From Flavobacterium sp. (lineage in GTDB: Bacteria > Bacteroidota > Bacteroidia > Flavobacteriales > Flavobacteriaceae), in assembly GCF_027484205.1 (NCBI RefSeq), contig NZ_JAIXUB010000001.1, positions 65,528 to 129,527 on the forward strand: a DNA stretch of 64,000 nucleotides. Reading direction: 5' to 3'. Below are positions 1,537-63,625 of the stretch, piece by piece (within the stretch, counting starts at the first letter, position 1; each line of letters opens with the position of its first letter). The translations under genes were made by a program, and so were the position numbers. A model generated the notes under the pieces. That model searched no databases and was not told where the DNA came from. It saw only the letters and a program-made list of their open reading frames with translations.

Positions 1537-3840
1537 ATGATGTCTTTAAAAACATATTTTTATACCATATTATTTTTTCTTTTTTGCGCTAAAACAATTG
1601 CGCAAAATATAGTTGTAGACGATACTTATACAGCACAACAACTTGTTGAGAATGTGCTTGTAAACAGTCCTTGTGCAACCGTTTCAAACTTTTCTGTATC
1701 TGGAGATACTTTCAGTACTGGTCAAAATAGTTATGGATATTTCGATTATTCTGGAACGGATTTTCCTTTTGCAAACGGAATTGTTTTAAGTACTTCAAGA
1801 GCTTCAAGAACTGCTGGACCAAATGATAATTTAATAGATGAAGGTTCGACTGCTTGGATTGGTGACAGTGATTTAGAACAAGCACTATCAATTACAGGTA
1901 CAGTAAATGCAACAGCTTTAGAATTTGATTTTACACCACTAACAAGTCAAATTAGTTTTGATTATATTTTTGCCTCAGAAGAATATCAAGGAACTGCTCC
2001 ATGTAGATATTCCGATGGTTTTGCATTTCTTTTAAAAGTTGCAGGAAGCACTGATGATTATCAAAATTTAGCGCTAATTCCAGGCACATCTACACCTGTA
2101 AAAGTAACTTCTGTTCATCCCGATATTTCGGGCGGAAGTGGTTGTAGTGCTCAAAATGAAGAATATTTTGGGAGTTATAACGGCACAATTCATCCGATAA
2201 ATTTTAATGGTCAAACAGTAGTAATGACTGCTAAAGCAGATGTAATTCCGGGAACAACATATCATATAAAACTAGTCATTGCTGACGAAGAAAATATTCG
2301 TTATGATTCGGCTATTTTTCTTGGTGGAGGAAGTTTTGATGTTGGAACTGATTTAGGCGAAGACCGATTAGAAGCTACAAATAACCCTGTTTGCGATGGC
2401 GAAAGTATCGTTTTAGATGCAACCGAAAGTGGTTTAAACACATATCAATGGTATAAAGACGGAACATCTTTATCAGGAGAAACAAATCCAACTTATACTG
2501 TAACATCTGAAGGATTTTATGAAGTTGAAGTCTCCATAAATGCTACCACTTGTGTTGCAAAAGGTGAGATTTTTATAGAATATGTAAACTTACCAATATT
2601 AAATAATCAAACTTTAATTCAATGTGATGAAGATACTGATGGAGTTACAACTTACAATTTAACTACTTTAAATTCTTTAATAACTGGAGGCGATTCACAA
2701 CTTACAAACGTTACTTTTTATGAAAGTTTAGCAAATGCTCAAGCAGGCACAAATCCTATTTCAAATCCAACTAATTATCAAAACACTTCAGTAAATCAAT
2801 TATTTGCAACTGCACAAAATCAATTTGGATGCATCGGTTTTGCCACAATTGATTTACAAATAGCATCCAACTCGCTACCAACAATAGCACCTATTTTTAC
2901 TTGTGACGTCATCGGAAATCAAGATGGAATTACTGATCTTGATTTAACTTCAATGATAGGAACATCATTATCAAGCAGTTTACCATCAGGATTGACCTTA
3001 GTTTACTATGCGACAGAAAACAATGCTATCACAAATACAAATCCATTAAATTTAACTTTCACCAATACAATTCCAAATCAGCAAACGATTTATGTAAAAA
3101 TTCTTGATGGAGTTAATTGTTATGGAATTCTACCTATAGAATTGAATGTAAATACTTTCAATCCTCCAAATTTTAATGATGAAACAATTTATTTATGTAA
3201 TGGCTCATCTCAAACACTTTCTGTTGCATCTGGATTTTCAAGTTATAATTGGTCAAATGGTGAAACAGATAATTCAATTACAGTAAATACCTCAGGAACT
3301 TATTCAGTTATAGTAACCGATATTAATGGATGTGAAAAAACGAAACGATTTGAAATTATTTTATCAAGTAGTGCAACTATAACTTCTGTAGATGTAAATG
3401 ATTTTTCAGGAAATAACAATTCCATTGAAATTATTGTTTCAGGAAATGGAGATTATGAATATTCAATTGATGGAACAATTTTTCAAGAAAGTCCATTTTT
3501 TTCAAACCTTGAACCCAATGAATATACCATTTATATAAATGATATCAATGGTTGTCCTCAAGTTACACAATCTGTCTATGTATTAGATTATCCTCACTTC
3601 TTTACTCCAAATGAAGATGGAATCAATGATATTTGGAGAATAAAAAGGATTCAATTTTTAGAAAATTCTACAATTTCAATTTTTGATAGATTTGGAAAAC
3701 TCATAACCTCTTACTCTGAAAATTATGTAGGATGGAACGGTAAACTAAATGGTTTTGATTTACCTTCGACAGACTATTGGTTTGTAATCACTTTAAATAA
3801 CGGTAGAACAATTAAAGGAAATTTTTCATTAGTGAGATAA
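1537..3840 (+). CDS. T9SS type-B sorting domain protein (choice-of-anchor L-like N-terminus, gliding-motility-associated C-terminal domain)
   Basis: Signal peptide; C-terminus FTPNEDGINDIW...FDRFGK...WNGK...STDYWF...KGNFSLVR. Confidence 0.85.
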   Translation: MMSLKTYFYTILFFLFCAKTIAQNIVVDDTYTAQQLVENVLVNSPCATVSNFSVSGDTFSTGQNSYGYFDYSGTDFPFANGIVLSTSRASRTAGPNDNLIDEGSTAWIGDSDLEQALSITGTVNATALEFDFTPLTSQISFDYIFASEEYQGTAPCRYSDGFAFLLKVAGSTDDYQNLALIPGTSTPVKVTSVHPDISGGSGCSAQNEEYFGSYNGTIHPINFNGQTVVMTAKADVIPGTTYHIKLVIADEENIRYDSAIFLGGGSFDVGTDLGEDRLEATNNPVCDGESIVLDATESGLNTYQWYKDGTSLSGETNPTYTVTSEGFYEVEVSINATTCVAKGEIFIEYVNLPILNNQTLIQCDEDTDGVTTYNLTTLNSLITGGDSQLTNVTFYESLANAQAGTNPISNPTNYQNTSVNQLFATAQNQFGCIGFATIDLQIASNSLPTIAPIFTCDVIGNQDGITDLDLTSMIGTSLSSSLPSGLTLVYYATENNAITNTNPLNLTFTNTIPNQQTIYVKILDGVNCYGILPIELNVNTFNPPNFNDETIYLCNGSSQTLSVASGFSSYNWSNGETDNSITVNTSGTYSVIVTDINGCEKTKRFEIILSSSATITSVDVNDFSGNNNSIEIIVSGNGDYEYSIDGTIFQESPFFSNLEPNEYTIYINDINGCPQVTQSVYVLDYPHFFTPNEDGINDIWRIKRIQFLENSTISIFDRFGKLITSYSENYVGWNGKLNGFDLPSTDYWFVITLNNGRTIKGNFSLVR

Positions 3841-3869: not shown

Positions 3870-6800
3870 ATGAAAAAGAAAATTTACTTATTATTTACAA
3901 TTGTCTTACTATCAATAAATTGCTACAGTCAATTTAGTAAAACGCATTATATTCCACCATTATCTGGTGCATCAAATGTTCCTGTTGAGGAACAATATCT
4001 CTATATTTCTTGTCCAAGTATTACACCGATAAACTTTGTTATAAAACAACTTGGAGGTACAAATATCAATGGAACAGTTTCAAGAGATAATCCCTATGTT
4101 TTTAATGTTGGAATTGGTTCATCTAATAATTTACATGTTGACCAAAGTGAAGTTAATACCATTCTTACAGATAAAGGTTACATTATTGAAGCCGAAGACG
4201 TTATTTATGTTACAGCTAGAGTAATTGCTGGCGACGGAAATCAAGCTGGAGAAGTTGTTTCAAAAGGATTAGCAGCATTAGGTACACAATTTAGAATTGG
4301 AGGTTTTACAAACATGATGATTCCATCAATCAACATCAATAATTATACATTTATATCAATTCTTGCTACAGAAAATAATACAGAAGTTTCCTTTAGTGAT
4401 ATTGAACTTGGAGCAGTTTTAGTAAACGATGCTGGATCAGGAAGTACTCCTGGAAATGTTTTTTTAAATGCTGGAGAAAGTTATGTTTTAGCTGTTCAAG
4501 GCCCAAATTCTGTAAACAGAGATGCTTTGATTGGAGCGCTTGTAAGTTCTGACAAACCAATTGCTGTAAATTGTGGATCATACGGAGGTACCAATGGTGA
4601 AATGCAAAATCAAGATTTAGGTTTTGACCAAATAGTATCAGCTGAAAGAACGGGAACTGAATATATTTTTATAAAAAATGATGGATTAGATAATGTTGAA
4701 AGAGTTTTATTAATTGCTCATGAAGATAATACCGATATTTTTTTAAATGGCAATACTGGAACACCAGATTACACACTACAAGCAAGTCAATATATTTTAT
4801 TAAACGGAACTCAATATGGTCCAAATGGTAATTTATATGTCAATACTTCTAAAAATATATTTGCTTATCAGAGTGTTGGTGATGGTCCTACTTCAATTCA
4901 AGCTAATCAAGAGTTGTTTTTTGTTCCACCATTAAGTTGTCAAACACCAAAAGTTATTGACAATATTCCATTGATTGAAGAAATTGGAACTAGAATTTTT
5001 ACAGGACGTGTAACCATTACAACAGAAACTGGTTCAGCACTAAATTTTGTTTTAAACGGAACGTCATACACTCTTGCAACTTTACCTGCAACTATATCTG
5101 TTGTTGGTCCTACTTCTGTTTTAGGAAATGCAAATTATGAATGTTACACAATCACAGGTTTTACTGGAAATGTTTCTGTTTATTCAACAGGTCAACTTTA
5201 TTTAGCCGCATACGGAAGTAATGGAAATGCTACTTTTGGTGGATATTATTCTGGATTTACATTTAAACCCGAAATCACTTTCCAACCTATAGATTTAACT
5301 CAAAACAATTGTATTCCAAACGTATCTTTAGAAGTTAGTACCTTAAATGGCTTTGATTTTTTCCAATGGTATTTTAATGACTCGCCAATTGCAGGAGCAA
5401 ATTCAAGTACGTACTCGCCTACTCTTCCTGGATATTATCATGTATCTGCAACAATTACTTCATGTGGAATTCCTGAACTAATTTCAGACAAAATACCCGT
5501 TAGTGATTGCCCAACAGATATGGATAATGATAATGTAAACGACAACATTGATCAAGATTTAGATAATGATGGAATTGCAAATTGTACAGAATCACTAGGA
5601 AATTCAGCGGTTAATTTATCAAATAATTCCTTTGGTTCAGTTACTGTGGGTTCATATTCAAATTTATTCTCAGGAACAATTACAACTACAGGAGATACTC
5701 CAACAGCAACACCATTTGTAGGAAATACCGATGGAAGTTTTGTTGCATCAGTTCCAAAAGGGGAAGAAAATTCTGTTACTTACCAAATGAATTTTGTCCA
5801 ACCAATTAGCTTATTATTAGATTATCCTTCAACAGCTTCCGCAGGAGATTTATTAAATTCTAATTTAAGTTTTGTTCTTTCAGTTCCTGTAAATAAAACA
5901 ATTACAGTATTAAATCCATCAAATCAATTATTAATTGACACTAACTATGATGGCATTTATGAAAGTGATGTAACCTCATTCTCATCATTTGAAATCCGAT
6001 TTAGATATGACGGAGCTTTACCACTTGCCGCTGGAGCTGGAACTTTTAAATTTTACACACACGAAGTAACTAGCTTAAAATTCAAACAAATCAATCTTGT
6101 AGATAGAGGAAGTGATCGAAAAGCTACTTTTAAATTAACAGCAACATGTGTATCTAAAGATTCGGATAACGATGGTATTCCTGATAAATTTGATTTGGAT
6201 TCAGAAAATGACTCCATTTCAGATTTCATTGAAGCACAAGGTTCTACATTATTAAGTTTATCAAACACTGACGCAAATGGCGATGGAATTGATGATATTT
6301 TTGGAACTGGATTAACTCCTGCAAATAACGATACTGACACGATACCAAATTATTTAGATTTAGACAGTGACAATGATGGAATTTTTGATATTATTGAATC
6401 TGGAAGTCCAGGAAATGCAACAAATACAAATGGAGATACTGTTGGCCCAAATTTTGGCACCAATGGCTTAGATAATACTCTTGAAACATCAGCAGATAGT
6501 GGTGTTTTAAATTATTCTGTTTTAGATATTGATACTGATGGCATTTTAAATTACATCGATTCTGATAGTGATAATGATAATTGTAATGATATCATAGAAG
6601 CAGGATATTCTGATGCAAATGGTGACGGAATTGTTGGTGACGAAAATCCAGCTACATTCAATACAGGAACAACTTTAGTTGGAACAGTTATTTCTTCAAC
6701 AGGATATGGAATCCCAAATGCAAATTACATAACTTCTGCTCGAATAATAATTAATACACAACCACAAGATGCTGTAGCTTGCGAATTACAATCAACTACA

Positions 6801-8963
6801 TTTACAATTAATACAAATCCTGTAAATAGCTATCAATGGCAACTTTCTACAGATTCAGGAACAACTTGGACAAACATTATTGATAATGCTACTTATTCAG
6901 GAAGTACTACAATTACTTTAACTGTTTCAAACGTAACACCTGCAATGGTTGGCTATAAATACAGAGTATTTTTAAATAAAAACGGAAATACTTGCGGATT
7001 ATATTCTGCGGCTGCAACATTAACAACTTACGCATTGCCAGTTATAACATCACCTGTAACATTAGTTCAATGTGATAATGATACTGATGGTGTTTCAACT
7101 TTTAATCTAACAGAAAAAAATACATTCATTTCTGCAAATTCAGCAGTAGAAACTTTTACCTATTTTACAACATTTGCTGGTGCAGATAACAATACTTCTT
7201 CTTTACAAATCACTACTCCATTTGCTTACACAACAACAAATTCAAGTGTTTATGTAAGGGTTGTAAATGCAAATGGATGTTATCGCGTTGCCCAATTAAA
7301 CTTGGTAGTATCAGCCACACAGTTACCATCAACATTCATAAGAAATTTTTACACTTGCGATGATTATATCGATGCAACAAATGATGATTATGATGGAATT
7401 TCATTGTTTGATTTTAGCAGCGTAACTACTGATATTCAAGCTATTTTACCAACTACAGCATCATATACTATAAATTATTATAGAAACGAAGCTGATGCTT
7501 TGTCAGAAACAAATGCAATTCCGAGTAGTTTGACTTCAAATTACAGAAATATTGGTTATCCTGGTATTCAAAATATTTGGGTTCGTGTAGATAGTGATGT
7601 CGACAATGCTTGTTTTGGACTTGGACCTTATGTTGTTCTAACTGTTGAAGCGTTGCCTGTTGCAAATTCAGTGAATGCAACAAATATCATTAGAACTTGT
7701 GATGATAACCATGATGGTATTTTCAATTTTGATACTTCAAATTTAGAAGCAACTATTTTAAATGGACAAACAAATGTAACTGTTACTTACTTTGACGAAT
7801 TAGGTAATCCAATTATTCCATTACCTAATCCACTTTTTGTAAATACTACTAAAACAATAACAGCTCGAGTAACTAACAACTCAACACAAGCTTCAAATGG
7901 ACCATGTTTTGATGAAGTGACAATACAATATATTGTTGACGATTTACCAGAAGCTTTTGCCATTTCAAACACATTAACAACAGTATGTGATGATGAAATT
8001 GATCCAATAGACCAAAATGGTTTATATGATTTTGATACTTCAACTTTTGAAACGACTATTCTAAATGGTCAAACAGGAATGGTGGTTAAATATTTTGATT
8101 CAAGCGGAAATCCATTACCAAGTCCTTTACCAAATCCATTTACTACTGGTACTCAAAATGTAACTGTATTGGTTGAAAACACAATAAACACAAGTTGTTC
8201 AGCTACCCTTGTAATTCCATTTATTGTTAATCCTACACCAAAAATTAGTTTAACTGATAATGAATTAGTTTGTACAAATCTTCCAACATTTCTTGTAACT
8301 GTAAACGCAGGAATTTTAGATGGAACTCCAAGTTCTTCATACAATTATCAATGGTATTTGGATGGAACACTAATTCCCGGAGCAACTTCATATAATTTAG
8401 ATGTAAACACTGGTGGAATATACACTGTTGATGTTACCAATAGTTTTGGATGTACAAAAACAAGAACAATAGATGTTTATGCTTCTGATATTGCCACAAT
8501 TCAAGATATTAATATTATTGATTTATCAGATGTTAACACTGTTGAAGTTATTGTAACTGGAACTGGAGATTATGTTTATAGCATTGATGATTCAATGTTC
8601 CAAGAATCAAACTTTTTCACTAATATTCCAATGGGTATTCATACTATATTCATCAAAGATTTATTAGGATGTGGAACGGTAATTAAGGAGATTTCTGTTC
8701 TTGGCGTTCCTCAATATTTTACTCCAAATGGTGATGGCTATAATGACACTTGGAATGTAAAAGGTGCAAATTCTGAATTTTATTCCAACTCCATAATTTA
8801 TATTTTCGATAGATTTGGAAAACTAATAAAACAAATATCACCAATTGGTCCAGGTTGGGATGGAACGTATAATGGAAACTTAGCGCCGTCAGATGATTAT
8901 TGGTACAACATTTCATTTGATGATGGAAGAAGCGCGAAAGGACATTTTAGTTTGAAACGATAA
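3870..8963 (+). CDS. Large T9SS type-B sorting domain surface protein (IgGFc-binding-like N-terminus, DxDxDG Ca-binding repeats, adhesin-like repeats)
   Basis: Signal peptide; repeated DxDNDG motifs; C-terminus FTPNGDGYNDTW...DDYWY...KGHFSLKR. Confidence 0.85.
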   Translation: MKKKIYLLFTIVLLSINCYSQFSKTHYIPPLSGASNVPVEEQYLYISCPSITPINFVIKQLGGTNINGTVSRDNPYVFNVGIGSSNNLHVDQSEVNTILTDKGYIIEAEDVIYVTARVIAGDGNQAGEVVSKGLAALGTQFRIGGFTNMMIPSININNYTFISILATENNTEVSFSDIELGAVLVNDAGSGSTPGNVFLNAGESYVLAVQGPNSVNRDALIGALVSSDKPIAVNCGSYGGTNGEMQNQDLGFDQIVSAERTGTEYIFIKNDGLDNVERVLLIAHEDNTDIFLNGNTGTPDYTLQASQYILLNGTQYGPNGNLYVNTSKNIFAYQSVGDGPTSIQANQELFFVPPLSCQTPKVIDNIPLIEEIGTRIFTGRVTITTETGSALNFVLNGTSYTLATLPATISVVGPTSVLGNANYECYTITGFTGNVSVYSTGQLYLAAYGSNGNATFGGYYSGFTFKPEITFQPIDLTQNNCIPNVSLEVSTLNGFDFFQWYFNDSPIAGANSSTYSPTLPGYYHVSATITSCGIPELISDKIPVSDCPTDMDNDNVNDNIDQDLDNDGIANCTESLGNSAVNLSNNSFGSVTVGSYSNLFSGTITTTGDTPTATPFVGNTDGSFVASVPKGEENSVTYQMNFVQPISLLLDYPSTASAGDLLNSNLSFVLSVPVNKTITVLNPSNQLLIDTNYDGIYESDVTSFSSFEIRFRYDGALPLAAGAGTFKFYTHEVTSLKFKQINLVDRGSDRKATFKLTATCVSKDSDNDGIPDKFDLDSENDSISDFIEAQGSTLLSLSNTDANGDGIDDIFGTGLTPANNDTDTIPNYLDLDSDNDGIFDIIESGSPGNATNTNGDTVGPNFGTNGLDNTLETSADSGVLNYSVLDIDTDGILNYIDSDSDNDNCNDIIEAGYSDANGDGIVGDENPATFNTGTTLVGTVISSTGYGIPNANYITSARIIINTQPQDAVACELQSTTFTINTNPVNSYQWQLSTDSGTTWTNIIDNATYSGSTTITLTVSNVTPAMVGYKYRVFLNKNGNTCGLYSAAATLTTYALPVITSPVTLVQCDNDTDGVSTFNLTEKNTFISANSAVETFTYFTTFAGADNNTSSLQITTPFAYTTTNSSVYVRVVNANGCYRVAQLNLVVSATQLPSTFIRNFYTCDDYIDATNDDYDGISLFDFSSVTTDIQAILPTTASYTINYYRNEADALSETNAIPSSLTSNYRNIGYPGIQNIWVRVDSDVDNACFGLGPYVVLTVEALPVANSVNATNIIRTCDDNHDGIFNFDTSNLEATILNGQTNVTVTYFDELGNPIIPLPNPLFVNTTKTITARVTNNSTQASNGPCFDEVTIQYIVDDLPEAFAISNTLTTVCDDEIDPIDQNGLYDFDTSTFETTILNGQTGMVVKYFDSSGNPLPSPLPNPFTTGTQNVTVLVENTINTSCSATLVIPFIVNPTPKISLTDNELVCTNLPTFLVTVNAGILDGTPSSSYNYQWYLDGTLIPGATSYNLDVNTGGIYTVDVTNSFGCTKTRTIDVYASDIATIQDINIIDLSDVNTVEVIVTGTGDYVYSIDDSMFQESNFFTNIPMGIHTIFIKDLLGCGTVIKEISVLGVPQYFTPNGDGYNDTWNVKGANSEFYSNSIIYIFDRFGKLIKQISPIGPGWDGTYNGNLAPSDDYWYNISFDDGRSAKGHFSLKR

Positions 8964-13562: not shown

Positions 13563-13634
13563 TAGCCCGTAGGGGAATCGAACCCCTCTTACCAGGATGA
13601 AAACCTGGCGTCCTAACCGATAGACGAACGGGCC
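13563..13634 (-). tRNA. tRNA-Glu(TTC)
   Basis: Reverse complement GGCCCGTTCGTCTATCGGTTAGGACGCCAGGTTTTCATCCTGGTAAGAGGGGTTCGATTCCCCTACGGGCTA forms a cloverleaf with anticodon TTC. Confidence 0.97.
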
Positions 13635-13678: not shown

Positions 13679-13750
13679 TAGCCCGTAGGGGAATCGAACC
13701 CCTCTTACCAGGATGAAAACCTGGCGTCCTAACCGATAGACGAACGGGCC
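13679..13750 (-). tRNA. tRNA-Glu(TTC), identical second copy
   Basis: Same 72-nt sequence as 13563-13634. Confidence 0.97.
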
Positions 13751-18103: not shown

Positions 18104-18291
18104 GTGAAAAACAATTTTATTTTAGCCCTGATTGAGCTGATATCCTCTTGCGTAACGAAAGTGAAGCAAGAGATAAAAGCGAAAGCAGGAATATGGTTTG
18201 CCAAAAAAGCCCTAAAGTTTCGCTCCTTAAATTAATTATCGTAATTTTGCACCCGATTCCGAAACTATGGAACAGACAATTAAAAAAAGGT

Positions 18292-19593
18292 ATGAGAACC
18301 AAATCGTTAAAGAAAAATAAAATCAATGTAATTACGCTTGGATGTTCTAAAAACACTTACGATAGTGAGGTTTTGATGGGACAATTGAAAGCCAGTGGCA
18401 AAGATGTTGTACACGAACAAGAAGGAAATATTGTTGTAATTAATACTTGCGGATTTATTGATAATGCAAAAGCCGAATCAGTAAATACAATTTTAGAATA
18501 TGCTGATAAAAAAGAACGCGGAATTGTCGATAAAGTTTTCGTAACCGGATGTTTATCTGAAAGATATCGTCCCGATTTAGAAAAGGAAATTCCAAATGTT
18601 GATCAATATTTTGGCACAACAGAATTACCTCTACTTTTGAAAGCTCTTGGTGCCGATTATAAACATGAATTGCTTGGAGAACGAATTACTACAACTCCAA
18701 AAAATTATGCCTATTTAAAAATTGCCGAAGGTTGTGACCGACCATGTAGTTTTTGTGCTATTCCAATTATGCGTGGAAAACACGTTTCGCAATCTATTGA
18801 AAAATTAGTTCGTGAAGCAGAAGGATTGGCAAAAAATGGTGTTAAAGAATTGATTCTTATTGCACAAGATTTAACTTACTACGGATTGGATTTGTACAAA
18901 AAACGTAATCTTGCCGAATTACTTGAAAATCTTGTAAAGGTTGAAGGAATTGAATGGATTAGATTGCATTATGCTTTCCCAACGGGTTTTCCAATGGATG
19001 TTTTAGAATTGATGAAACGCGAACCGAAAATTTGCAATTATATTGATATTCCGTTGCAACATATTTCAGATAACATTTTGAAATCTATGAAACGTGGTAC
19101 AACGAAAGAAAAAACTACTAAATTACTGAAAGATTTTCGTGAAGCTGTTCCTGGAATGACCATTAGAACGACTTTAATTGTGGGTTATCCTGGTGAAACA
19201 CAAGAAGATTTTGAAATTATGAGAGATTGGGTTCAAGAAATGAAGTTTGAACGTTTAGGATGTTTTACCTATTCTCACGAAGAAAATACTACGGCTTTTG
19301 CATTAGTTGATGATGTTCCTGAGGAAGTGAAAAAAGCTCGTGCACAAGAAATTATGGATTTACAATCGCAAATCTCATGGGATTTGAATCAAGAGAAAAT
19401 TGGCCAAACTTTTAAATGTATTATTGACAGAAAAGAAGGTCAATATTTTGTGGGTAGAACTGAATTTGATAGTCCAGATGTAGATAATGAAGTACTAATT
19501 GACGCTTCAAAATTCTATGTAAAAACAGGCGATTTTGTTATGGCAAAAATTACCGACGCAACAGAATATGATTTATATGCTGAACCGGTTTAA
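18292..19593 (+). CDS. rimO: Ribosomal protein S12 methylthiotransferase RimO
   Basis: TLGCSKN, NTCGFI, GCL, CDRPCSFC, TRAM tail GRTEFDSPDVD; start placed downstream of TAATTTTG at 18242-18249 rather than at 18148. Confidence 0.93.
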   Translation: MRTKSLKKNKINVITLGCSKNTYDSEVLMGQLKASGKDVVHEQEGNIVVINTCGFIDNAKAESVNTILEYADKKERGIVDKVFVTGCLSERYRPDLEKEIPNVDQYFGTTELPLLLKALGADYKHELLGERITTTPKNYAYLKIAEGCDRPCSFCAIPIMRGKHVSQSIEKLVREAEGLAKNGVKELILIAQDLTYYGLDLYKKRNLAELLENLVKVEGIEWIRLHYAFPTGFPMDVLELMKREPKICNYIDIPLQHISDNILKSMKRGTTKEKTTKLLKDFREAVPGMTIRTTLIVGYPGETQEDFEIMRDWVQEMKFERLGCFTYSHEENTTAFALVDDVPEEVKKARAQEIMDLQSQISWDLNQEKIGQTFKCIIDRKEGQYFVGRTEFDSPDVDNEVLIDASKFYVKTGDFVMAKITDATEYDLYAEPV

Positions 19594-22530: not shown

Positions 22531-23721
22531 TTAATCCTTCAAAACTCTATTGATTTTTACGAAACTTCTAGCATAATAATCTTCTTTTGTTGACGAAATC
22601 ATTACACCTTGACTTGTTGAAGAATGAATAAACTTAATTTCATCATCAAGCACTTCAGTCACCATTCCTACGTGGCTAATGCGTCCTTTTCCGAAAGTAG
22701 CAAAAAATATTAAATCACCTTTTTGTGCTTGTGATCTTTCTACACGTTGTCCATAATTTCCCATTTCGTGCGATGTTCTTGGCAACGACATATCCAGATT
22801 TTTAAAAGTAAAAAGCATAAAACCTGAACAATCAAAACCACCAGGTGAAGTTCCGCCACGTCTGTATCTTGTACCAATATGTTCTGACGCTTTTGCAATT
22901 AACAATTCGGCTTTTGATAGATTTTCTGCTGAAAGTGGTTTGGCTAATTCAACTTCTTTTTGAACTTCCACTACTTCCGCTTTATTTTCAATTGTTTCGC
23001 CTGTACCCTTTTTTATAATTAAAAATTGGTCAATTTTCAAACCATTTGCCACACTTGGATTCAATCGAGTAATCTCTTCAATAGAAACACCCGTTTGTCT
23101 TGAAATTCCATACAAAGTTTCTTTTGGCAATACTTTATGAACTATATCTACATTAGAAACCATAGGTTCGGCAGAAGCTACATTAATCGTTTCTACAACC
23201 TTATTTTCCTCTTTAAGTACTTTTTCAGGAACCGTTGCTTCCTCCATATTAGGCAATTGCAACTTCATTCCGGTTTTTAAATTACTTGTTTTCAATTCTG
23301 GATTTAACTCACAGAGCGTTTCCATTGTTACACCATATTTTTTTGAAATGCTGTATAAAGTTTCTTTTGCTTTTACAGCATGAGTTGCTTTCGAATTACC
23401 TTGAATCTGTGCTGAAACTTCAGTATTTTTCAGATTATCATTTTTATCAGCATTTGCTTTTTTATCAGCAACCTCTTTCTTTGTAGGCTTTTCTTGTTCC
23501 TTGAATTTCTTGTTTGGAATTTTAACCTCAGCATTCAAACCTAAAACGGCTCCTTTCAACTTAGGATTCAAACCATATATTTCCGATTGAGTAACGTCGT
23601 ATTTTTTAGCAATAGAGTAAATCGATTCGCCTGATTTCACCTTATGTTTAATAACTTTTTGAGCAAAAGTTGGAACAGAAAAAAACAGAAAGAACAGTAT
23701 AAAGAGTTTGAAAAATTTCAT
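22531..23721 (-). CDS. Peptidoglycan endopeptidase with 3 LysM domains and an NlpC/P60 domain
   Basis: Three HxVxxxETLYSISKKY-type LysM repeats; GFDCSGF and ISHVG catalytic motifs; start at MKFFKL. Confidence 0.9.
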   Translation of the reverse strand: MKFFKLFILFFLFFSVPTFAQKVIKHKVKSGESIYSIAKKYDVTQSEIYGLNPKLKGAVLGLNAEVKIPNKKFKEQEKPTKKEVADKKANADKNDNLKNTEVSAQIQGNSKATHAVKAKETLYSISKKYGVTMETLCELNPELKTSNLKTGMKLQLPNMEEATVPEKVLKEENKVVETINVASAEPMVSNVDIVHKVLPKETLYGISRQTGVSIEEITRLNPSVANGLKIDQFLIIKKGTGETIENKAEVVEVQKEVELAKPLSAENLSKAELLIAKASEHIGTRYRRGGTSPGGFDCSGFMLFTFKNLDMSLPRTSHEMGNYGQRVERSQAQKGDLIFFATFGKGRISHVGMVTEVLDDEIKFIHSSTSQGVMISSTKEDYYARSFVKINRVLKD

Positions 23722-23897
23722 GAGTTGTATATAATTCACAGCACCAGAAAGTACCATTAAAAGTTTTGCAATTTACAAATAAATGTGCATTTCGTCGGTA
23801 TTTTTTAACTTAAATTTAAAAAAACAATAGTTTCATTACTACAAATACAACATAATAAAGAAATAAATGGATTTAAAAATTTGCAACATTTTTTTCG

Positions 23898-23905
23898 TAT
23901 ATTTG
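23898..23905 (+). promoter_or_regulatory. Candidate array-head (Pc-like) promoter -7 element TATATTTG
   Basis: Exact TAnnTTTG facing the cassette array; nearest upstream TTTG is only 14 nt away, shorter than the usual spacing. Confidence 0.5.
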
Positions 23906-23918
23906 AATACTACACGCT

Positions 23919-23990
23919 GTTATGTAGCGCAAATATTACCTTATTTGGGTGTATTACCGCTATAACGTAGCGACTATATAAGTTAGTGAC
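23919..23990 (+). other. Array left boundary, candidate attI-like site (imperfect hairpin followed by G|TTAGTGAC)
   Basis: GTTAGTGACAATTG (from 23982) is complementary to the first cassette's end CAACTGTCACTAAA; hairpin at 23919-23966. Confidence 0.55.
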
Positions 23991-24034
23991 AATTGTAAAA
24001 AAAACGGAACGAATTCAATAACTTAATTTAACAA

Positions 24035-24556
24035 ATGAAAGAATTTATAATAGAAAACTGGGATAAAATAGTTTCGGGAATTTTAAGTATTTATGCTACA
24101 ATTTTATCTACTTATACATTTATAAAACAAAAAGACAAACTGAAAGTTGAATTTTCTTTAGGTTATATGCATGTCAAACAGAAGAATTATATGTATAGAC
24201 TAGCATCAATTAACATAATAAATTTGTCGCAAAATCCACTAAAAATTAAAGGCGCAAAATTTCATGACATTAAAGGGAAAATAGTTGATATTTCTGGTGT
24301 TCCTGAAGAAATCACAAAAAATGTGTTGCGTTCAGAAATGGATTTTGAAAATAAAGTTTTTGTTGATGTAAATCAAGAAATGAGCAAATTTGACAAGAAA
24401 ACTCAAATAAATCCCTATGATGATAGATATTTATACTACGATTATATTTCATTGAAAAAGTATATGGACGATAACAAAGTTATCTATTTTACTGTAACTC
24501 ATAACAATGGAAAAAAGAAGATAAAAATTACTAATAAAAAGATATTTGACATGTAA
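24035..24556 (+). CDS. Cassette: hypothetical protein with an N-terminal TM anchor
   Basis: Single ORF between boundary 23982 and site 1. Confidence 0.7.
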   Translation: MKEFIIENWDKIVSGILSIYATILSTYTFIKQKDKLKVEFSLGYMHVKQKNYMYRLASINIINLSQNPLKIKGAKFHDIKGKIVDISGVPEEITKNVLRSEMDFENKVFVDVNQEMSKFDKKTQINPYDDRYLYYDYISLKKYMDDNKVIYFTVTHNNGKKKIKITNKKIFDM

Positions 24557-24564
24557 ACAACTGT

Positions 24565-24699
24565 CACTAAAAACGGTTTAAAAAAATGGTGTGGCTCGGG
24601 ATTTTTCAGAAATGGTAATTGTTGAATCAAAGTTTTATTTACATTTGTAATTGGCAGTGAATGAAGTACGCAACTTCTTGTAGCCGCAAAACGTTAGGC
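24565..24699 (+). repeat. attC-like site 1 (family A)
   Basis: R'' CACTAAA ... GCAACTTCTTGTAGCCGC AAAAC GTTAGGC; TACATTTG at 24640. Confidence 0.85.
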
Positions 24700-24721
24700 T
24701 CAACTATTACAACTAATACTT

Positions 24722-25405
24722 ATGGAAGGAAAAAAGCTAATAAGAACATTATTATCATTAAGCATATTATTCATTCTGATTACGATTGGTTTTTATTTAT
24801 ACCAATTTGGTAGTTTAAGACTTTCAGAAAATAACGAAGATTGGTCTAACTTTTCAAACTATTTTAATGGAATTTTGACACCAATATTAACCTTGTTAAA
24901 TTTACTCATGTTTGCTTACCTAAGTTTTAAATTAGTACAAATTGAGGATGATAGAAATCACTGGACATTACAAGAATTAGCAAGACCATATGCAAATTTA
25001 ATAACTGAAAACACTTCTGGAAGTGTCGAAATTACGGTTCATAATGTTGGACTTGGGCCAATGATATTAACCGATTTCAGAATTTTCAAAGATCCTGAAA
25101 AAACATACAGGAACTTTTACTATTTAATTAATGACATCGCTGATTATGAAAATATAGGTCCAGAAATTCAACCAAAAATTGATTCTTTTGAAGTCAACTC
25201 TGAAAGTGGTGCAATTGCGAAAGACAAATCGCATTGTTTATTGAAAGTTTATTTTTTAGAGGATAGTCAACAAAACATGCAATTTTTAGATTTAATACGT
25301 ATTCATTTGAATGATTATACTCTATCCATAACTTATAGTGATATGTATGGTAGAGAAATAGAATGTATGCGCGAAAAGTTAAATTTTAAACCTTGGAACA
25401 ACTAG
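24722..25405 (+). CDS. Cassette: hypothetical membrane protein (two N-terminal TMs, WSNFSNYFNG motif)
   Basis: ORF fills the interval between sites 1 and 2. Confidence 0.7.
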   Translation: MEGKKLIRTLLSLSILFILITIGFYLYQFGSLRLSENNEDWSNFSNYFNGILTPILTLLNLLMFAYLSFKLVQIEDDRNHWTLQELARPYANLITENTSGSVEITVHNVGLGPMILTDFRIFKDPEKTYRNFYYLINDIADYENIGPEIQPKIDSFEVNSESGAIAKDKSHCLLKVYFLEDSQQNMQFLDLIRIHLNDYTLSITYSDMYGREIECMREKLNFKPWNN

Positions 25406-28305: not shown

Positions 28306-28444
28306 TGCTAACATTGGTTTTCATCAATGGCAAGGCTTGGGATTTATTTGTCATTGGAAAGGTTTTTAATTTAAAGTTTTGTTAATACTTGTAAAGGCTT
28401 GGGCTTGGTTCGTCACCACTTCTTGAAGCCGCGAAACTTTAGCC
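28306..28444 (+). repeat. attC-like site 5 (family A; R' core mutated to TTT)
   Basis: TGCTAAC ... CCACTTCTTGAAGCCGC GAAAC TTTAGCC. Confidence 0.8.
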
Positions 28445-28893: not shown

Positions 28894-28956
28894 ATCAAAC
28901 AAAAAATCGAAAAGAAAAAATCGAAAAGAAAAACTCATAAAAGAAAAAAAACGAAC

Positions 28957-28975
28957 GGCTAACAGCAGTTTACAA
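28957..28975 (+). repeat. attC-like site 6, collapsed (R'' and start of left arm only)
   Basis: GGCTAAC AGCAGTTTACAA, then AT-rich sequence and the ATG at 28993; no loop, right arm or R'. Confidence 0.6.
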
Positions 28976-28992
28976 ACATTTTTTACATCGTT

Positions 28993-30528: not shown

Positions 30529-30536
30529 AACACTAT

Positions 30537-30699
30537 CGCTAACACAGGTTTTATGCTATTGCTGCGCTTGGGCTTTTTTGGACGCTTGGTCTCTTATCTT
30601 TTTTCTTTTTCATCACGTTTTATTTCCAAAAGTTTTCGGTATATTTGTTATCGGCTGTGATAAAAGCAGCAACTGTCGCAAAGCGGCATTACGTTGGTG
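30537..30699 (+). repeat. attC-like site 9 (family C)
   Basis: CGCTAAC A CAGGTTTTATGCTATTGCTG ... CAGCAAC ... GTTGGTG; TATATTTG at 30640. Confidence 0.85.
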
Positions 30700-30745
30700 G
30701 CAAGACTACATCAACAGACAAAAAAATCAATAAATAAAGAAAAAA

Positions 30746-31834: not shown

Positions 31835-31843
31835 AAGCCCAGC

Positions 31844-31871
31844 CACCAACATGCAGTTTGGCAAACAGTTT
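31844..31871 (+). repeat. attC-like site 10, collapsed (R'' joined directly to the next cassette start)
   Basis: CACCAAC ATGCAGT TTGGCAAACAGTTT; TTGGCAAA is complementary to the next cassette's end TTTGCCAAC at 32510. Confidence 0.65.
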
Positions 31872-31905
31872 ATAAAAACTACTAAAAATAAAAAATATAT
31901 TAATT

Positions 31906-32028
31906 ATGAGTGATAAAGAAAAACCAGAAAAACCTACAAATCAATCAGAAAAACCAACTGATGGAGGTTCAACATTTATAACTTTGAATGATGAAACACC
32001 AAGCCGAAATACAACAAACAAAGACTAA
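31906..32028 (+). CDS. Cassette: 40-aa hydrophilic peptide, missed by the ORF track
   Basis: MSDKEKPEKPTNQSEKPTDGGSTFITLNDETPSRNTTNKD*, preceded by an A-rich leader. Confidence 0.4.
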   Translation: MSDKEKPEKPTNQSEKPTDGGSTFITLNDETPSRNTTNKD

Positions 32029-32484
32029 CCAAAATAGCAAAGTTTTAAAAGCTTTATTATAAGAAGTGGAAATTATAGTCAAATGTTTACCGTTTATCTC
32101 AATTGATTTTTGGTAAGTAAATAGAATATTAATTCTTGACTTTTCTTCTGTTTCTGAAGTTATTTTATCGAAGTTGTCTGGCGCAATTCCATTAAACCTT
32201 AAATCTAAAGGAGTAATGGCTTTTCTTGTATGGAATACGATGATGCCTCCGAATAATACTATTGAATAAAGTATGTAGCTTTTTAACGTATAAAACTTAC
32301 CTTCTATAATGTCAGAAACAGAATATCCGAAAACGGCTAATATTAAAGTTAATAAATAAAAAAGTCTATTTCTTGTTTCTCGTATAGAGTCATTGATGTG
32401 AATAAGCAAATCTTTTGCTTCACTTAATTGAATACTAAATAATTCGTTTTTTGTTTTCATATTTGTAAAATTAAACATTTTCAC
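31969..32484 (-). CDS. Cassette: three-TM membrane protein in reverse orientation
   Basis: Only substantial minus-strand ORF in the array; probable ATG at 32460 (MKTKNE). Confidence 0.7.
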   Translation of the reverse strand: MKMFNFTNMKTKNELFSIQLSEAKDLLIHINDSIRETRNRLFYLLTLILAVFGYSVSDIIEGKFYTLKSYILYSIVLFGGIIVFHTRKAITPLDLRFNGIAPDNFDKITSETEEKSRINILFTYQKSIEINGKHLTIISTSYNKAFKTLLFWLVFVCCISAWCFIIQSYKC

Positions 32485-32511
32485 TTAATTCAGTGGAAAA
32501 TAAAACCGATT

Positions 32512-32676
32512 TGCCAACACAGGTTTTATGCTATTGCTGCGCTTGGGCTTTTTTAAAGGTTTGGTCTCTTATCTTTTTTCTTTTTTTAAAACGTTTTTTC
32601 TTTCAAAGTTTTCGGTATATTTGCTTTGGTCTTTGACAAAAATCAGCAACAGACATAAAGCCTGGGAACGTTAGCT
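32512..32676 (+). repeat. attC-like site 11 (family C)
   Basis: TGCCAAC A CAGGTTTTATGCTATTGCTG ... CAGCAACAGACATAAAGCCTG GGAAC GTTAGCT; TATATTTG at 32616. Confidence 0.9.
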
Positions 32677-32700
32677 GCCATTTTCATAACACTCGATTTT

Positions 32701-36527: not shown

Positions 36528-38330
36528 ATGAAAATAAGCATCTTAATAATATCCCTTTTTATTTTTGGACAAACTTTTGGCCAAAATAAACAATTGAAAG
36601 ACAGAATTAATCAAGTAGAAAACAACTTAATTCCCTATGTGCCTGTAAAAGGTTTTAATGGTTGGAATATTATTGACAGAATGAAGTATTACAAAGTTCC
36701 AGGATTAAGTATTGCTGTAATAAAAGATTACAAAATTGACTGGGCTAAAGGATATGGATTAGCAGACACAATTCAAAAAACAAAGGTTACAACCGAAACG
36801 ATGTTTTCAGCAGGTTCAATCAGTAAATTTTTAATGGCAGTTACAGCTCTTAAATTAGTTGAAGAGGGAAAAATTGGCTTGGATAGCCCAATTAATGATT
36901 ATCTCACTTCTTGGAAAATTACCGAGAATGACTATACCAAAAAAACGCCTGTTACTCTAAGAATGTTGTTAAGCCATTCGGCAGGTACTTCTCAAACTTC
37001 CTATTTTGGTTTTACACCAACAGAACCACTACCAACGATTGTAGATGTGTTGAATGGTGCGAAAATTTCACAAACAAGAGCTGTAGTTGTAAATAGTGAA
37101 CCCAACAAAGAATTTCGATATTCTGGTGGAGGTAGTATGATTGCGCAAATGGTTTTGATGGACGTTAGCAAAAAGAGTTTTGGTAATTTAACACAACAAG
37201 TACTATTTGACAAAATTGGAATGACCAACTCAACATTTGAACAACCAGTTCCAGAAAAATTTTCTAAACAATGTTCTTGGGCTTATTCGCAAGCCTCATG
37301 GTTTAAAGGAATGCCTTATGTCTATCCACAACAAGCAGCAGCAGGTCTTTACTCAACTCCAACTGACTTGGCTAAATTTTTCATAGATGTTCAAAACTCA
37401 TTCAATGGAAAAGGCAAAGTTTTGAGTGAAGAAATGACAAAAAAAATGCTAACATCGCAAGTAAATGTTTCTGATGGTGGCTATAAAGAACAAATGGCAA
37501 TTGGACCATTTCTAATTCAACGTACAGACAACAAAGACCCAAATGGAGTTTACTTTGAATTTACTGGTGTTAATGCAGGTTTCTTGGCTTATGGAATAGC
37601 GAGTGTACAAGGAGGAAATGGAGTTATTGTAATGCTTAATTCTGGTGACAATCAAAACGGAATTGGAAAAGAAATTAGAAGAGCCGTAGCCAAAGTGTAT
37701 AATTGGACTAACTTTTTACCCGATGAAATTCAACCAATCAATCTGCCTGAAGATGAATTAAACAAAATGGCTGGACGATATAGAATGGCTACAGACGAAG
37801 TACTTTATTTAAGAAAAGAAAAAAACTATCTAGTAGAGAATATAAACAATGGAAATGAAATTTACTGCTTCCCAATCTCAAAAGATAGCATTGTATTTAC
37901 GGATTACAACATCAAGGGCTTCTTTAAAAGAAATGAAAATGGAGAAATAATCGGGCTTCAAAATATTTATCAAGAAAAGCCAATGCCAAAAATGAAAGAC
38001 AATGAATTTTCGCCAAGTGAATATTTAAATATGCAGCAATATGATGAAGCCAAAAAAGCATTTGCAGCAATGAAAATGAATGAAGGACAAATTACATACT
38101 TAGCCTATGACTTGATGAATAAAAAGCCATTAAACCCATTTGCCGTAAAAACCATTTTAGATTTAGCAACAGAGCAACATCCGAATTCTTCAATGGTTTA
38201 CAGTCGTTGGGGTGACTATTATTTAAAACTAAATGACAAACAAAATGCATTAAAGAGCTATCAAAAAGCCATAGATCTTGACCCAAACGACCAACAAACA
38301 AAAGATATTTTGGAAACCTTAAAAAAATAA
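36528..38330 (+). CDS. Cassette: secreted serine hydrolase (beta-lactamase/PBP-like family) with a C-terminal TPR
   Basis: VPGLSIAVI, SxxK = SISK, LLSHSAG, FRYSGGG, YPQQAAAGLYSTPTDLAKF; TPR YQKAIDLDPND. Confidence 0.85.
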   Translation: MKISILIISLFIFGQTFGQNKQLKDRINQVENNLIPYVPVKGFNGWNIIDRMKYYKVPGLSIAVIKDYKIDWAKGYGLADTIQKTKVTTETMFSAGSISKFLMAVTALKLVEEGKIGLDSPINDYLTSWKITENDYTKKTPVTLRMLLSHSAGTSQTSYFGFTPTEPLPTIVDVLNGAKISQTRAVVVNSEPNKEFRYSGGGSMIAQMVLMDVSKKSFGNLTQQVLFDKIGMTNSTFEQPVPEKFSKQCSWAYSQASWFKGMPYVYPQQAAAGLYSTPTDLAKFFIDVQNSFNGKGKVLSEEMTKKMLTSQVNVSDGGYKEQMAIGPFLIQRTDNKDPNGVYFEFTGVNAGFLAYGIASVQGGNGVIVMLNSGDNQNGIGKEIRRAVAKVYNWTNFLPDEIQPINLPEDELNKMAGRYRMATDEVLYLRKEKNYLVENINNGNEIYCFPISKDSIVFTDYNIKGFFKRNENGEIIGLQNIYQEKPMPKMKDNEFSPSEYLNMQQYDEAKKAFAAMKMNEGQITYLAYDLMNKKPLNPFAVKTILDLATEQHPNSSMVYSRWGDYYLKLNDKQNALKSYQKAIDLDPNDQQTKDILETLKK

Positions 38331-41434: not shown

Positions 41435-41566
41435 CACTAAAAGCGGTTTGATAAAATGGCAAATTTTATGGTAAATACAAGTTTATATTTTACAAGAAAT
41501 TTTATCTTTATCAGAAAATAATTAGTTCCGAGGTTTTCAATCTTGTTAAACGCCAGAACATTACTA
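41435..41566 (+). repeat. attC-like site 19 (family B; cores AAA/ATT)
   Basis: CACTAAA ... family-B loop ... AGAAC ATTACTA. Confidence 0.78.
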
Positions 41567-41660
41567 GCAATTGACTAGCAGGATGGAGAATTCAATAACT
41601 TAATGCAGAAAAGATATTTTTTATCTTTATTGAATTGTGGAAAAAAACAAAATTTAAAAT

Positions 41661-45618: not shown

Positions 45619-47160
45619 TTACAACGGAATATTTCCGTGTTTGCGTTTTGGTGTATCAACCACTTTATTTTCGAGCATACTGAACGCTTTTAGTAGTTTT
45701 CTACGTGTATCTTTTGGTAAAATAACCTCATCAATAAAACCACGTTGCGCTGCTGTATATGGATTTGCAAACAACTCCGCATATTCTGCTTCTTTTTCTG
45801 CTAATTTTTCTGTTGGATTTTGGGCTTCACTAATTTCTTTTTTGAAGATAATTTCAGATGCACCTTTTGCTCCCATCACAGCAATTTCGGCACATGGCCA
45901 TGCAAAATTCATATCGGCACCAATGTGTTTCGAATTCATTACATCATACGCGCCACCATAAGCTTTACGAGTAATCACTGTAACTCTTGGAACTGTGGCT
46001 TCACTGAAAGCATATAATAATTTTGCGCCATGAACGATAATTCCGTTCCATTCTTGATCCGTTCCAGGTAAGAATCCAGGAACATCTTCTAAAACCAACA
46101 ATGGAATATTGAAACAATCGCAAAAACGAACAAATCGCGCACCCTTAATTGAAGATTTCACATCCAAACATCCTGCTAAAAACTTAGGATTATTAGCTAC
46201 AATTCCGATGCTTCTTCCTCCTAATCTTGCAAAACCTACAATAATATTTTCGGCAAAATCCTTATGAATTTCGAAAAACGAATCCTCATCAATAATGTTG
46301 TCAATAACATCGTGCATGTCGTAAGGTTTGTTCGCATTATCTGGAATAATAGTATCCAGTTTCTCCCGAACTTCATCGTTAGTTACATAGGGCAACTTAG
46401 GTGTTGTTTCTCTGTTATTTTGAGGCAAATAGCTCAATAATTTTTTAATATCTTCAAGACATTCAATTCCGTTAGGCGAAGTGATATGTGCCACACCAGA
46501 TTTAGTAGAATGTGTACTCGCTCCACCTAATTCTTCCGAAGTAACTTCTTCGTTTGTAACCGTTTTCACCACATTTGGTCCAGTAACAAACATATAACTA
46601 TTTCCTTCAACCATCATCGTAAAATCGGTCATAGCAGGCGAATAAACAGCGCCACCAGCACATGGTCCCATAATGGCAGAAATCTGTGGAATTACACCAC
46701 TAGATTGTACATTTCTATAAAAAATATCAGCATAACCACCAAGCGAACGAACACCTTCCTGAATTCTAGCTCCACCAGAATCGTTTAACCCAATCATTGG
46801 CGCACCACTTTTTAGAGCCATGTCCATTACTTTACATATTTTTTCAGCATGAGTTTCAGATAATGAACCTCCAAAAACGGTGAAATCTTGTGCAAAAACA
46901 TATACAATTCTTCCGTTAATTGTTCCATAACCTGTCACAACACCATCGCCATAAACAATTTCTTTTTCCATACCAAAATCGGTAGTTCGGTGTGTTACCA
47001 ACATTCCGATTTCTTCAAAAGAACCTTCGTCCATAAGATATTCCACACGTTCACGAGCCGTTAATTTCTTTTTGGCATGATGCGACGCAATTCTTTTTTC
47101 ACCTCCACCTAATTTGGCTAAAGCTATTTTATCGTTTAATATTTTAATTTTATCTTCCAT
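45619..47160 (-). CDS. pccB: Acyl-CoA (propionyl-CoA) carboxylase carboxyltransferase subunit
   Basis: [39 protein letters not shown]. Confidence 0.88.
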
Positions 47161-52317: not shown

Positions 52318-52372
52318 TAAAGTCCTTCAAACTCCCAAAGCTTTGGGACAAGATGACAAAAAATATAAAAAT

Positions 52373-62266: not shown

Positions 62267-63625
62267 ATGAAAAAATATTTTACTTCACTGTTAGTTGTAA
62301 TTTCAGTTTTAGTATCTTGCTCTAAAGATGATTCTGATACAAATGCAACTTTAGCTACGGTTACTACAAATCCAATTACATCATTTACAACAATTTCTGC
62401 TGTTTGTTCAGGAACTGTTTCAAATGATGGTGATTCAAATATAACCGCTAGAGGAATTTGCTGGAATACAAGTACAAATCCAACAATTGCAAATTCAAAA
62501 ACTATTGACGGAACTGGAACTGGAACATTTACATCAAATCTATCTGATTTAATTCCAAATACAACTTATTATATTCGAGCTTACGCAACAAATTCTGTTG
62601 GAACTGCTTATGGAAATGAATTGAGTTTTACGACAGAAGAGGCAATGTATTTTCCACCAAACGACGGAAGTACAACTTGGGAGACAAAAACAATTGAAAG
62701 TTTAGGTTGGAATCAAACTGCAGTTCAACCTTTATTAGACTACTTAGAATTAAAACATTCTAAATCATTTATTGTTTTAGTAAACGGAAGAATTGTTTTA
62801 GAAAATTATTTCAACGGACATTCAGCTACAACGCCATGGTATTGGGCAAGTGCTGGGAAAACATTAACTTCAACTGTAACCGGAATAGCTCAAGATCAAG
62901 GACTCTTAAACATCAATAATAAAGTCTCTGACTATTTAGGAACAGGTTGGACAAGTGCACCAATTTTAAAGGAAAATTTAATCACTTGCAAAAATTTACT
63001 TTCAATGAATTCTGGATTAAATGATGAATTGGGCGATGATGTTTCGCCTGCAAACCTTCAATATGTTGCAGATGCAGGAACGCGTTGGGCATATCATAAT
63101 GTATATGTAAAACTTCAAGATGCTGTGGCACAAGCAAGTGGTCAAACTTGGACAAACTATTTCAATACAAATTTGAGAGATAAAATTGGAATGACTGGTG
63201 GAAGTTGGATACAATCTGATGGTTTGAGTGTTTACTGGAGTACTTCAAGAAACATGGCTCGATTTGGATTGATGGCATTAAACGAAGGAAAATGGAATGG
63301 AACTACTATTGTAAGTAAAAACTTCATGAATCAAGCGTCAAATACATCACAAACTATTAATCAAGCATATGGTTATTTATGGTGGTTGAATGGAAAATCT
63401 AGTTATCATTTACCGCAAACACAATTTCAATTTTCTGGAACTTTGATTCCAAGCGCACCAAGTGATATGTATTGTGCATTAGGCAAAAATGATCAAAAGA
63501 TTTACGTAATACCAAGCAAAAAAATGGTTATAATAAGAATGGGAGAAGTTGCTGACGGAGTAAATTTTGCCTTATCGGATTTTGATGAAACGCTTTGGAG
63601 TAAAATTAGTGATTTATATGAATAA
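62267..63625 (+). CDS. Lipoprotein serine hydrolase (beta-lactamase class C-like) with an N-terminal FnIII-like domain
   Basis: Lipobox LVSC; YYIRAYATNSVGTAYG; SAGK; YGYLWWLN. Confidence 0.8.
   Translation: MKKYFTSLLVVISVLVSCSKDDSDTNATLATVTTNPITSFTTISAVCSGTVSNDGDSNITARGICWNTSTNPTIANSKTIDGTGTGTFTSNLSDLIPNTTYYIRAYATNSVGTAYGNELSFTTEEAMYFPPNDGSTTWETKTIESLGWNQTAVQPLLDYLELKHSKSFIVLVNGRIVLENYFNGHSATTPWYWASAGKTLTSTVTGIAQDQGLLNINNKVSDYLGTGWTSAPILKENLITCKNLLSMNSGLNDELGDDVSPANLQYVADAGTRWAYHNVYVKLQDAVAQASGQTWTNYFNTNLRDKIGMTGGSWIQSDGLSVYWSTSRNMARFGLMALNEGKWNGTTIVSKNFMNQASNTSQTINQAYGYLWWLNGKSSYHLPQTQFQFSGTLIPSAPSDMYCALGKNDQKIYVIPSKKMVIIRMGEVADGVNFALSDFDETLWSKISDLYE

Follow-up and report, generated by a model that had tools for sequence, protein, structure and literature searches.

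In an integron platform (for example, attI1 with the Pc promoter in class 1 integrons, or the platform of Vibrio cholerae), the attI site is placed just in front of the first cassette; it terminates in the G|TT of a core of the GTTAG type that is common to the cassette sites (the bar marks the crossover), and it has a left half-site unlike attC. The platform also has an outward promoter, and its joint is the place at which cassettes change between close relatives. In a complete integron, attI adjoins intI, and classical integron cassettes do not carry a promoter of their own. CALINs (2016; PMC4889954) are co-oriented attC arrays with no integrase within reach, and they are defined without a conserved head. 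Hardly any integrons are recorded for Bacteroidetes in large IntegronFinder surveys (PMC9024848), and among the papers searched, no description was found of arrays or heads of the kind considered here in Flavobacteriia.

The DNA analysed here, a stretch of 64,000 nucleotides (the window; approx. 30% G+C) from a freshwater Flavobacterium, contains a cassette array on its + strand (23983-45512, approx. 21.5 kb) with about 20 attC-like sites when counted by eye (16 via an attC nhmmer profile) and approx. 27 co-oriented small ORFs (24035-45350), the majority of which have no Pfam family. The array is located between a LysM/NlpC-P60 gene on the left (22531-23757, - strand) and a carboxyltransferase gene on the right (45619-47160, - strand), the terminator of which forms the right flank. 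It falls within the definition of a CALIN: it comprises two or more attC sites, all of the same orientation, and an integron-integrase was not found nearby. However, CALINs are defined without a head, whereas a conserved leader module marks the start of the array here and in many genomes. This module, the array head (23868-23982, + strand; approx. 115 nt, with its left edge between 23852 and about 23888), combines a -7 box and a long hairpin with a TATAnAnAAG box, and its right edge abuts the first cassette.

The elements that separate the cassettes are approx. 130-150 nt long and are built as ...GCTAAC-A-(arm)...(arm)-AAAAC-G|TTAGC... Compared with CALINs, the sites here are characterised by two arms of approx. 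20 bp, a loop of approx. 70 nt and a 1-nt vs. a 5-nt spacer beside the core GCTAAC/GTTAGC. In about half of the cassettes, the 3' inverse core is the exact complement of the first bases of its own cassette, which is the logic of integron cassettes. The arms are Watson-Crick paired at 81% of positions, and the top-strand mismatches are more often A.C than G.T (160 vs. 110, p = 0.003); this excess suggests that, as in integron attC, it is the bottom strand that folds. Some sites of the array have decayed: at 28438, the crossover core is mutated to AAACT|TTAGCC, and the inverse cores CGGCTAAC and CCACCAAC accompany truncated sites (28955-28992 and 31835-31968). One ORF within the array, at 31969-32484, is on the opposite strand. 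The string GGCTTGGGCTTTTTTGG, which occurs in some of the sites (30529-30745 and 32485-32700), is also found in the LysM-carboxyltransferase gap of two other loci that have no array there (L013 and L014), beside an ORF that we take, by eye from its translation, to be superoxide-dismutase-like. The site family is not restricted to this locus. A degenerate pattern derived from two window sites matched at least 120 metagenome contigs, of which about 2 would be expected by chance according to our estimate, and the same family is present in nine "viral" contigs (IMG/VR). The near-absence of reported integrons in Bacteroidetes contrasts with at least 120 contigs matched by a single site pattern.

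Housekeeping promoters of Bacteroidota, as studied in Bacteroides and Flavobacterium, carry a TTTG element at -33 and a TAnnTTTG element at -7. The putative promoter box of the head, TATATTTG (23898-23905, + strand), matches this -7 consensus and faces the cassettes. The preliminary description had placed a promoter here, and the box is kept at the same position in other heads: in homologous columns of 14 aligned heads, the box reads TATATTTG in eight and TACATTTG in one, so that 9/14 fit TAnnTTTG. The motif alone is not beyond chance, because the window contains it 135 times, with 122.75 occurrences expected. No RNA run was found to contain the sequence. A TTTG 14 nt upstream of the box (23880-23883, + strand) might serve as the -33 element; the spacing is also 14 nt in the heads of L089 and L040 and 15 nt in that of L124, and 14 nt is an atypical spacing, shorter than that of the consensus. 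The TAnnTTTG box, often as TTTTCGGTATATTTG, is also found inside the loops of 10 of the 20 attC-like sites, in the same orientation as the next cassette, at -52 to -55 relative to the crossovers located at 24693, 27980, 30044, 30693, 32670, 35550, 36500, 39508 and 44152, and at -59 from that at 43259. Because the same box recurs in half of the sites, downstream cassettes probably express themselves from their own loop boxes. In this respect the cassettes seem to carry their own promoter, unlike classical integron cassettes.

The layout of the head is constant. Between the promoter box and a long imperfect hairpin lie 9-15 bases, mostly A-rich, and the hairpin is followed by the sequence (C/T)TATAnAnAAG immediately 5' of |TTAG. 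In the window, this junction box reads ACTATATAAG (23973-23982, + strand); it makes up the left half of the first recombination site, is specific to heads and is unlike the attC left half GCCGCAAAACG. The window's head scores 65.5 bits with nhmmer (E 6.9e-18) and 78.4 bits with the covariance model R1 over 23898-23996. The motifs listed in the preliminary description (TATATTTG at 23898-23905, a hairpin at 23919-23966, GTAGCGACTATATAA at 23967-23981 and G23982|TTAGTGAC) are all present. Two smaller ones are not borne out when other heads are compared: neither the dyad CGACT/AGTTA nor the direct repeat GTAGCGAC/TTAGTGAC is kept elsewhere, and GTAGCG forms the hairpin's outer 3' arm, which co-varies with its partner.

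Cassette 1 (23983-24693, + strand) comprises a leader, an ORF (24035-24556; 173 aa, no Pfam family) and an attC-like site (about 24557-24693). Its first bases, TTAGTGACAATTGT (23983-23996), match the reverse complement of 24557-24570 (TTAGTGACAGTTGT) at 13 of 14 positions. Homologues of the cassette-1 protein are 77-79% identical, and the only one with a readable context (P0003, 79%) is encoded by an internal cassette of the metagenome contig L204. There the cassette begins with the same TTAGTGACAATTG, placed after the ...GACGGCACG of a normal attC; the left side of the joint is ...GCGACGGCACG of an ordinary attC-like site in L204 and ...GACTATATAAG of the head in the window. The complementarity and the occurrence of the same cassette behind an ordinary attC confirm, at the level of sequence, that G23982|T23983 is a true site-specific recombination joint, exactly where the crossover had been called previously. 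Pairwise identity to the left and right of the joint was not discriminating in DNA this rich in A+T. As a separate observation, the leader of cassette 1 contains GAATTCAATAACTTAAT (24011-24027, + strand), an exact 17-mer that recurs at 41588-41604 in the 5' leader of an unrelated cassette beginning at 41561; in L044, a similar string is found close to an attC-like site.

As at an attI, the head lies directly before the first cassette, and the crossover is the G|TT of a GTTRRRY-like core (G23982|TTAGTGA). The preliminary description had seen no long attC-type stem before this crossover. Indeed, no attC-type element precedes it: the attC nhmmer profile that recovers the 16 array sites finds none in the head, and with filters off, what heads have in common with the profile is limited to the 14 nt right of the crossover (TTAGCnnnnATTTT). 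The head resembles an integron attC in these 14 nt and in having a hairpin near a G|TT crossover. However, an attC is a palindrome that ends in an inverse core and a core, whereas the head has no inverse core to pair with the crossover core, and its crossover is 10-12 nt outside the hairpin rather than inside the stem.

Homologous heads are present at 15 loci, i.e., the window and 14 others, which belong to four Flavobacterium species (F. aquatile L007, F. taihuense L033, F. aquariorum L035 and F. petrolei L040) and ten metagenome contigs (L089, L100, L112, L124, L149, L157, L162, L164, L165 and L204). In the longer contigs, heads were sought upstream of the first recognisable attC through the complement of its inverse core, and they were recovered by an nhmmer profile and then by R1. 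The four genomes had been retrieved solely for their LysM gene, and L204 solely via the protein homologue of cassette 1. In L204, the R1 head at 3668-3771 coincides with the exact start of an array of 11 attC sites, in agreement with an independent prediction. Each locus has a single head, and it is located left of the cassettes wherever cassettes are recognisable (no recognisable attC follows the head of L040). On their far side, the heads adjoin mutually unrelated genes (LysM, dGTPase, ParB-methylase, HTH, amino-acid permease and tRNA-Ser). Thus, the proposal that the segment is an array head is upheld by a homologous module at the left end of the cassettes in other loci. The DNA upstream of two of these heads has features of its own. 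In F. aquatile, approximately nine tandem 22-bp units (GGGTTGTCAGATAACAAGTTTG-like) lie between LysM and the head (about 9270-9470 of L007); after them comes a Cro/C1-type HTH gene whose end is just short of the head. In L204, a tRNA-like gene, presumably tRNA-Ser, and three tandem repeats of approx. 125 nt lie directly upstream of the head (3075-3600), and the cassettes of this array include AbiH, HNH, Imm33-like and DUF2971 genes.

The hairpin (23915-23972, + strand) is built from an outer stem (CGCT 23915-23918 with AGCG 23969-23972), a second stem (GTTAT 23919-23923 with ATAAC 23962-23966), an inner stem (AGCG 23926-23929 with CGCT 23958-23961) and a central stem within 23930-23957. With arms CGCT-GTTAT-GT-AGCG ... 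CGCT-ATAAC-GT-AGCG, it is longer than the 48 nt first described. When the 48-nt hairpin GTTATGTAGCG...CGCTATAAC was folded as DNA, it reached -5.0 kcal/mol on the + strand and -6.0 on the - strand (z = -1.42 and -1.90), and 17 and 8 of 200 shuffles, respectively, were equally stable; alone, it is therefore not significant. Its significance comes instead from conservation across loci, where the imperfect hairpin is 55-65 nt long and shows compensatory changes. RNAalifold predicts the inner stem from 13 heads, with compensatory changes in 5 of 6 pairs. In the covariance-model alignment of 14 heads, 70% of the cells pair, compared with 57% in column shuffles and 34-41% with slid partners, and the covariation score is 0.42 vs. 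0.22, a value reached by none of 500 shuffles, although these figures are somewhat favoured by an alignment fitted to the structure. At least six homologues (L149, L112, L164, L089, L165 and L157) fold alone as one long hairpin, with z values down to -6.8. All four outer half-arms are mutually complementary in at least five heads (in the window, CGCT/AGCG occurs twice), and because of this, such heads could possibly form either one long hairpin or three small ones.

What had been described as a hairpin is thus a conserved structure, whereas its closure by GTT...AAC is peculiar to the window, since other heads have unrelated letters at that position or, as in L149, AAC...GTT. No copies of the hairpin were found elsewhere in the window. 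Rfam 15 gave no match in the window at the gathering score, and at E values up to 5 within 23760-24760, only three chance snoRNA hits appeared elsewhere in that stretch. An intrinsic terminator is ruled out, as the hairpin is followed by ACTATATAAGTTAGTGAC without a T run. One head departs from the family: in that of F. aquariorum (L035, 7416-7511), a deletion has removed 12 nt from the central hairpin's 3' arm relative to F. taihuense. Given this loss, the hairpin may be dispensable, or the L035 head may be decaying.

Comparison with relatives defines the boundaries of the head and its turnover. Positions 23758-23851 are core chromosomal flank, namely the DNA upstream of the LysM/NlpC-P60 gene, which is oriented divergently. 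In L004, the closest species among the genomes of the collection (LysM 76% identical), the site is empty: the LysM and carboxyltransferase genes are 273 bp apart, and similarity to the window extends from 23760 to about 23867 (81% over 108 nt) and then ends. The empty site shows that head and array come and go together. Among Flavobacterium species, the LysM-carboxyltransferase gap varies and mostly contains unrelated genes; in F. aquatile (L007), the same locus has a three-site array with a head. A closer relative, represented by contigs from three other studies, is at least 99% identical over 23654-23851 and diverges exactly after 23851. Beyond this point, a 17-mer of its sequence recurs in the L089 head, namely in its left part, and judged by this 17-mer, the relative is the carrier of a different, homologous (L089-like) head allele at the same place. 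The window's own head was found, by its 31-mers, in one study only and always with the same cassette 1, and no strain variation at the head was seen in this source population.

Turnover at the joint itself is visible in the sister species F. taihuense (L033) and F. aquariorum (L035). They are 94% identical through flank and head, diverge directly after ...CTAG|TTA and continue with different cassettes. As the two arrays have no cassette in common, insertion at the head is indistinguishable here from replacement of the whole array. The preliminary description expected conservation to reach G23982 and to stop there. This is the case for L033/L035, in which it stops at G|TTA. In the window, by contrast, divergence from the nearest relative begins as early as 23851|23852.

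The search for a recombinase was negative at every level. None was detected in the window (Pfam on the ORFs except the giant 3870-8963 and 52343-56878 and a few small ones), in the 10 kb beyond either window end, or beside any of the 15 heads (Pfam on head neighbours and tblastn with IntI1). IntI1, used as a probe only, had no tblastn match in 121 array contigs either (about 2.2 Mb of loci searched). No recombinase was found among the recurrent ORF families of these 121 contigs, among the genes common upstream of arrays, or in the nine "viral" contigs with the same sites, and neither array end has a transposase or integrase. In a complete integron attI adjoins intI, whereas no intI adjoins the head and none was found in 84 kb. 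Since no recombinase was found at the window or at the heads, "attI" is used here only as an analogy of position and behaviour and not of membership. Accordingly, the earlier view of the segment as an attI analogue stands for position, joint and turnover in L033/L035, whereas it lacks a candidate recombinase in the window, within 10 kb on either side and beside the heads.

The head shares with the integron platform its place directly before the first cassette, an end in G|TT of a GTTAG-type core common to the cassette sites, a left half-site unlike attC, an outward (putative) promoter and a joint at which cassettes change between close relatives. It differs in its conserved 55-65-nt hairpin and in being followed by cassettes with promoter boxes of their own; to our knowledge, attI sites have no such hairpin. 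Neither L/DR1/DR2-type repeats nor conserved direct core repeats were seen in the head alignment. Considering that cassette content changes exactly at the head joint between L033 and L035, the segment is probably the fixed front end of an integron-like array, i.e., an attI/Pc-like anchor for a recombinase acting in trans, with an outward promoter. In such a system, a recombinase encoded elsewhere in the genome would cut the G|TT of the head in the same way as that of the attC-like sites, and the exchange of cassettes at this point would make the head the anchor site of the array. The putative TATATTTG promoter would transcribe into cassette 1, as Pc does. The hairpin would most likely serve to place the recombinase, or an accessory factor, on DNA that has folded, much as the arms would in the attC-like sites, and a role as a stem-loop at the 5' terminus of the transcript is nearly as likely. 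A broader proposal, put forward tentatively and somewhat improbable at present, is that Flavobacteriia own a widespread cassette system with long-looped, promoter-bearing attC-like sites, a hairpin head as docking or entry point, and a non-linked recombinase acting in trans that is perhaps not IntI.

The role of the hairpin is the point on which a different reading comes closest. If transcription started a few bases after TATATTTG, the hairpin could act in RNA as a leader stem-loop that stabilises the message or binds a regulator, and TATAnAnAAG|TTAG alone would be the recombination site. This is quite possible, if a little short of an even chance. In its favour, the hairpin starts 9-15 nt past the -7 box, and the sense strand gives the more stable fold in 9-10 of 13 heads, with more G.T than A.C mismatches (21 vs. 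13), which is opposite to the bias of the attC arms (A.C 160 vs. G.T 110, p = 0.003). However, the strand bias of the heads is not significant (p = 0.23), there is no Rfam match, and by hand count in nine heads, the hairpin is held at a tighter distance from the crossover (10-12 nt) than from the promoter (9-15 nt). On balance, we lean slightly towards a DNA-level role in recombination, with the RNA leader almost as likely. It is decidedly less probable, and on the whole unlikely, that head and array together form a larger island, mobile or replaceable and moved or swapped as one piece, with the head as its left terminus and the hairpin as an end-recognition structure rather than a cassette insertion site. 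Heads do adjoin unrelated genes, the site is empty in the closest species (L004), and the relative with at least 99% identity has a different head allele from 23852 onwards. Such an island should nonetheless be reconciled with the lack of a transposase or integrase at the array ends, with a right end that stops in a normal attC R' and shows no structure matching the head, and with the break between L033 and L035, which falls at the internal G|TT and not at the outer edge of the head.

Two further explanations deny the head any identity of its own. The first cassette might have entered ordinary intergenic DNA at a secondary GTT site (an "attG"-type off-target), next to which promoter and hairpin would be incidental. 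Integron integrases are reported to be able to insert cassettes outside att sites (bioRxiv 10.1101/2022.09.11.507474), and CALINs may arise in such a way (PMC8618304). The head family largely refutes this scenario for the present locus and leaves it very improbable, because homology over the 115 nt to the left of the joint extends across 15 chromosomal contexts that are unrelated, and the empty site of L004 lacks these nucleotides. The segment could also be a truncated attC or, as the preliminary description allowed, a gene-less mini-cassette bounded by GTT (23919) and AAC (23966). GTTAT...ATAAC is indeed present in the window, and there is a faint likeness between GTAGCGnC...G|TTAG and the 3' end of some attC sites. 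The attC profile, however, has no match to the left of the crossover in any of the heads, and the mini-cassette falls because GTT...AAC is not conserved in other heads. Both forms are refuted at the sensitivity used and are hardly credible.

The attI/Pc-like anchor, as the preferred reading, has practical consequences. Through a conserved head, the start of these arrays becomes recognisable, a promoter is likely and the entry joint is defined, and the arrays can be searched for in genomes. The missing recombinase thereby becomes a concrete question, namely, which gene co-occurs with heads, and the head can be used to test if an attI-like site works without a linked integrase. Defence-type genes (AbiH, HNH and methyltransferases) are found among the cassettes of the arrays, which may serve as a defence and accessory gene store of freshwater Flavobacteria.

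Other features of the window can be mentioned briefly. Genes of the type IX secretion/gliding type are present, as is a Flavo-1 RNA (18120-18196), which is located just upstream of a radical-SAM/TRAM ORF (18148-19593) and overlaps its listed start. Two tRNA genes with identical scores form a tandem pair (13563-13634 and 13679-13750). One cassette (36528-38330) encodes a protein of 600 aa with a serine beta-lactamase-family domain (PF00144) and TPR repeats, and a second PF00144 protein is encoded outside the array at 62267-63625.
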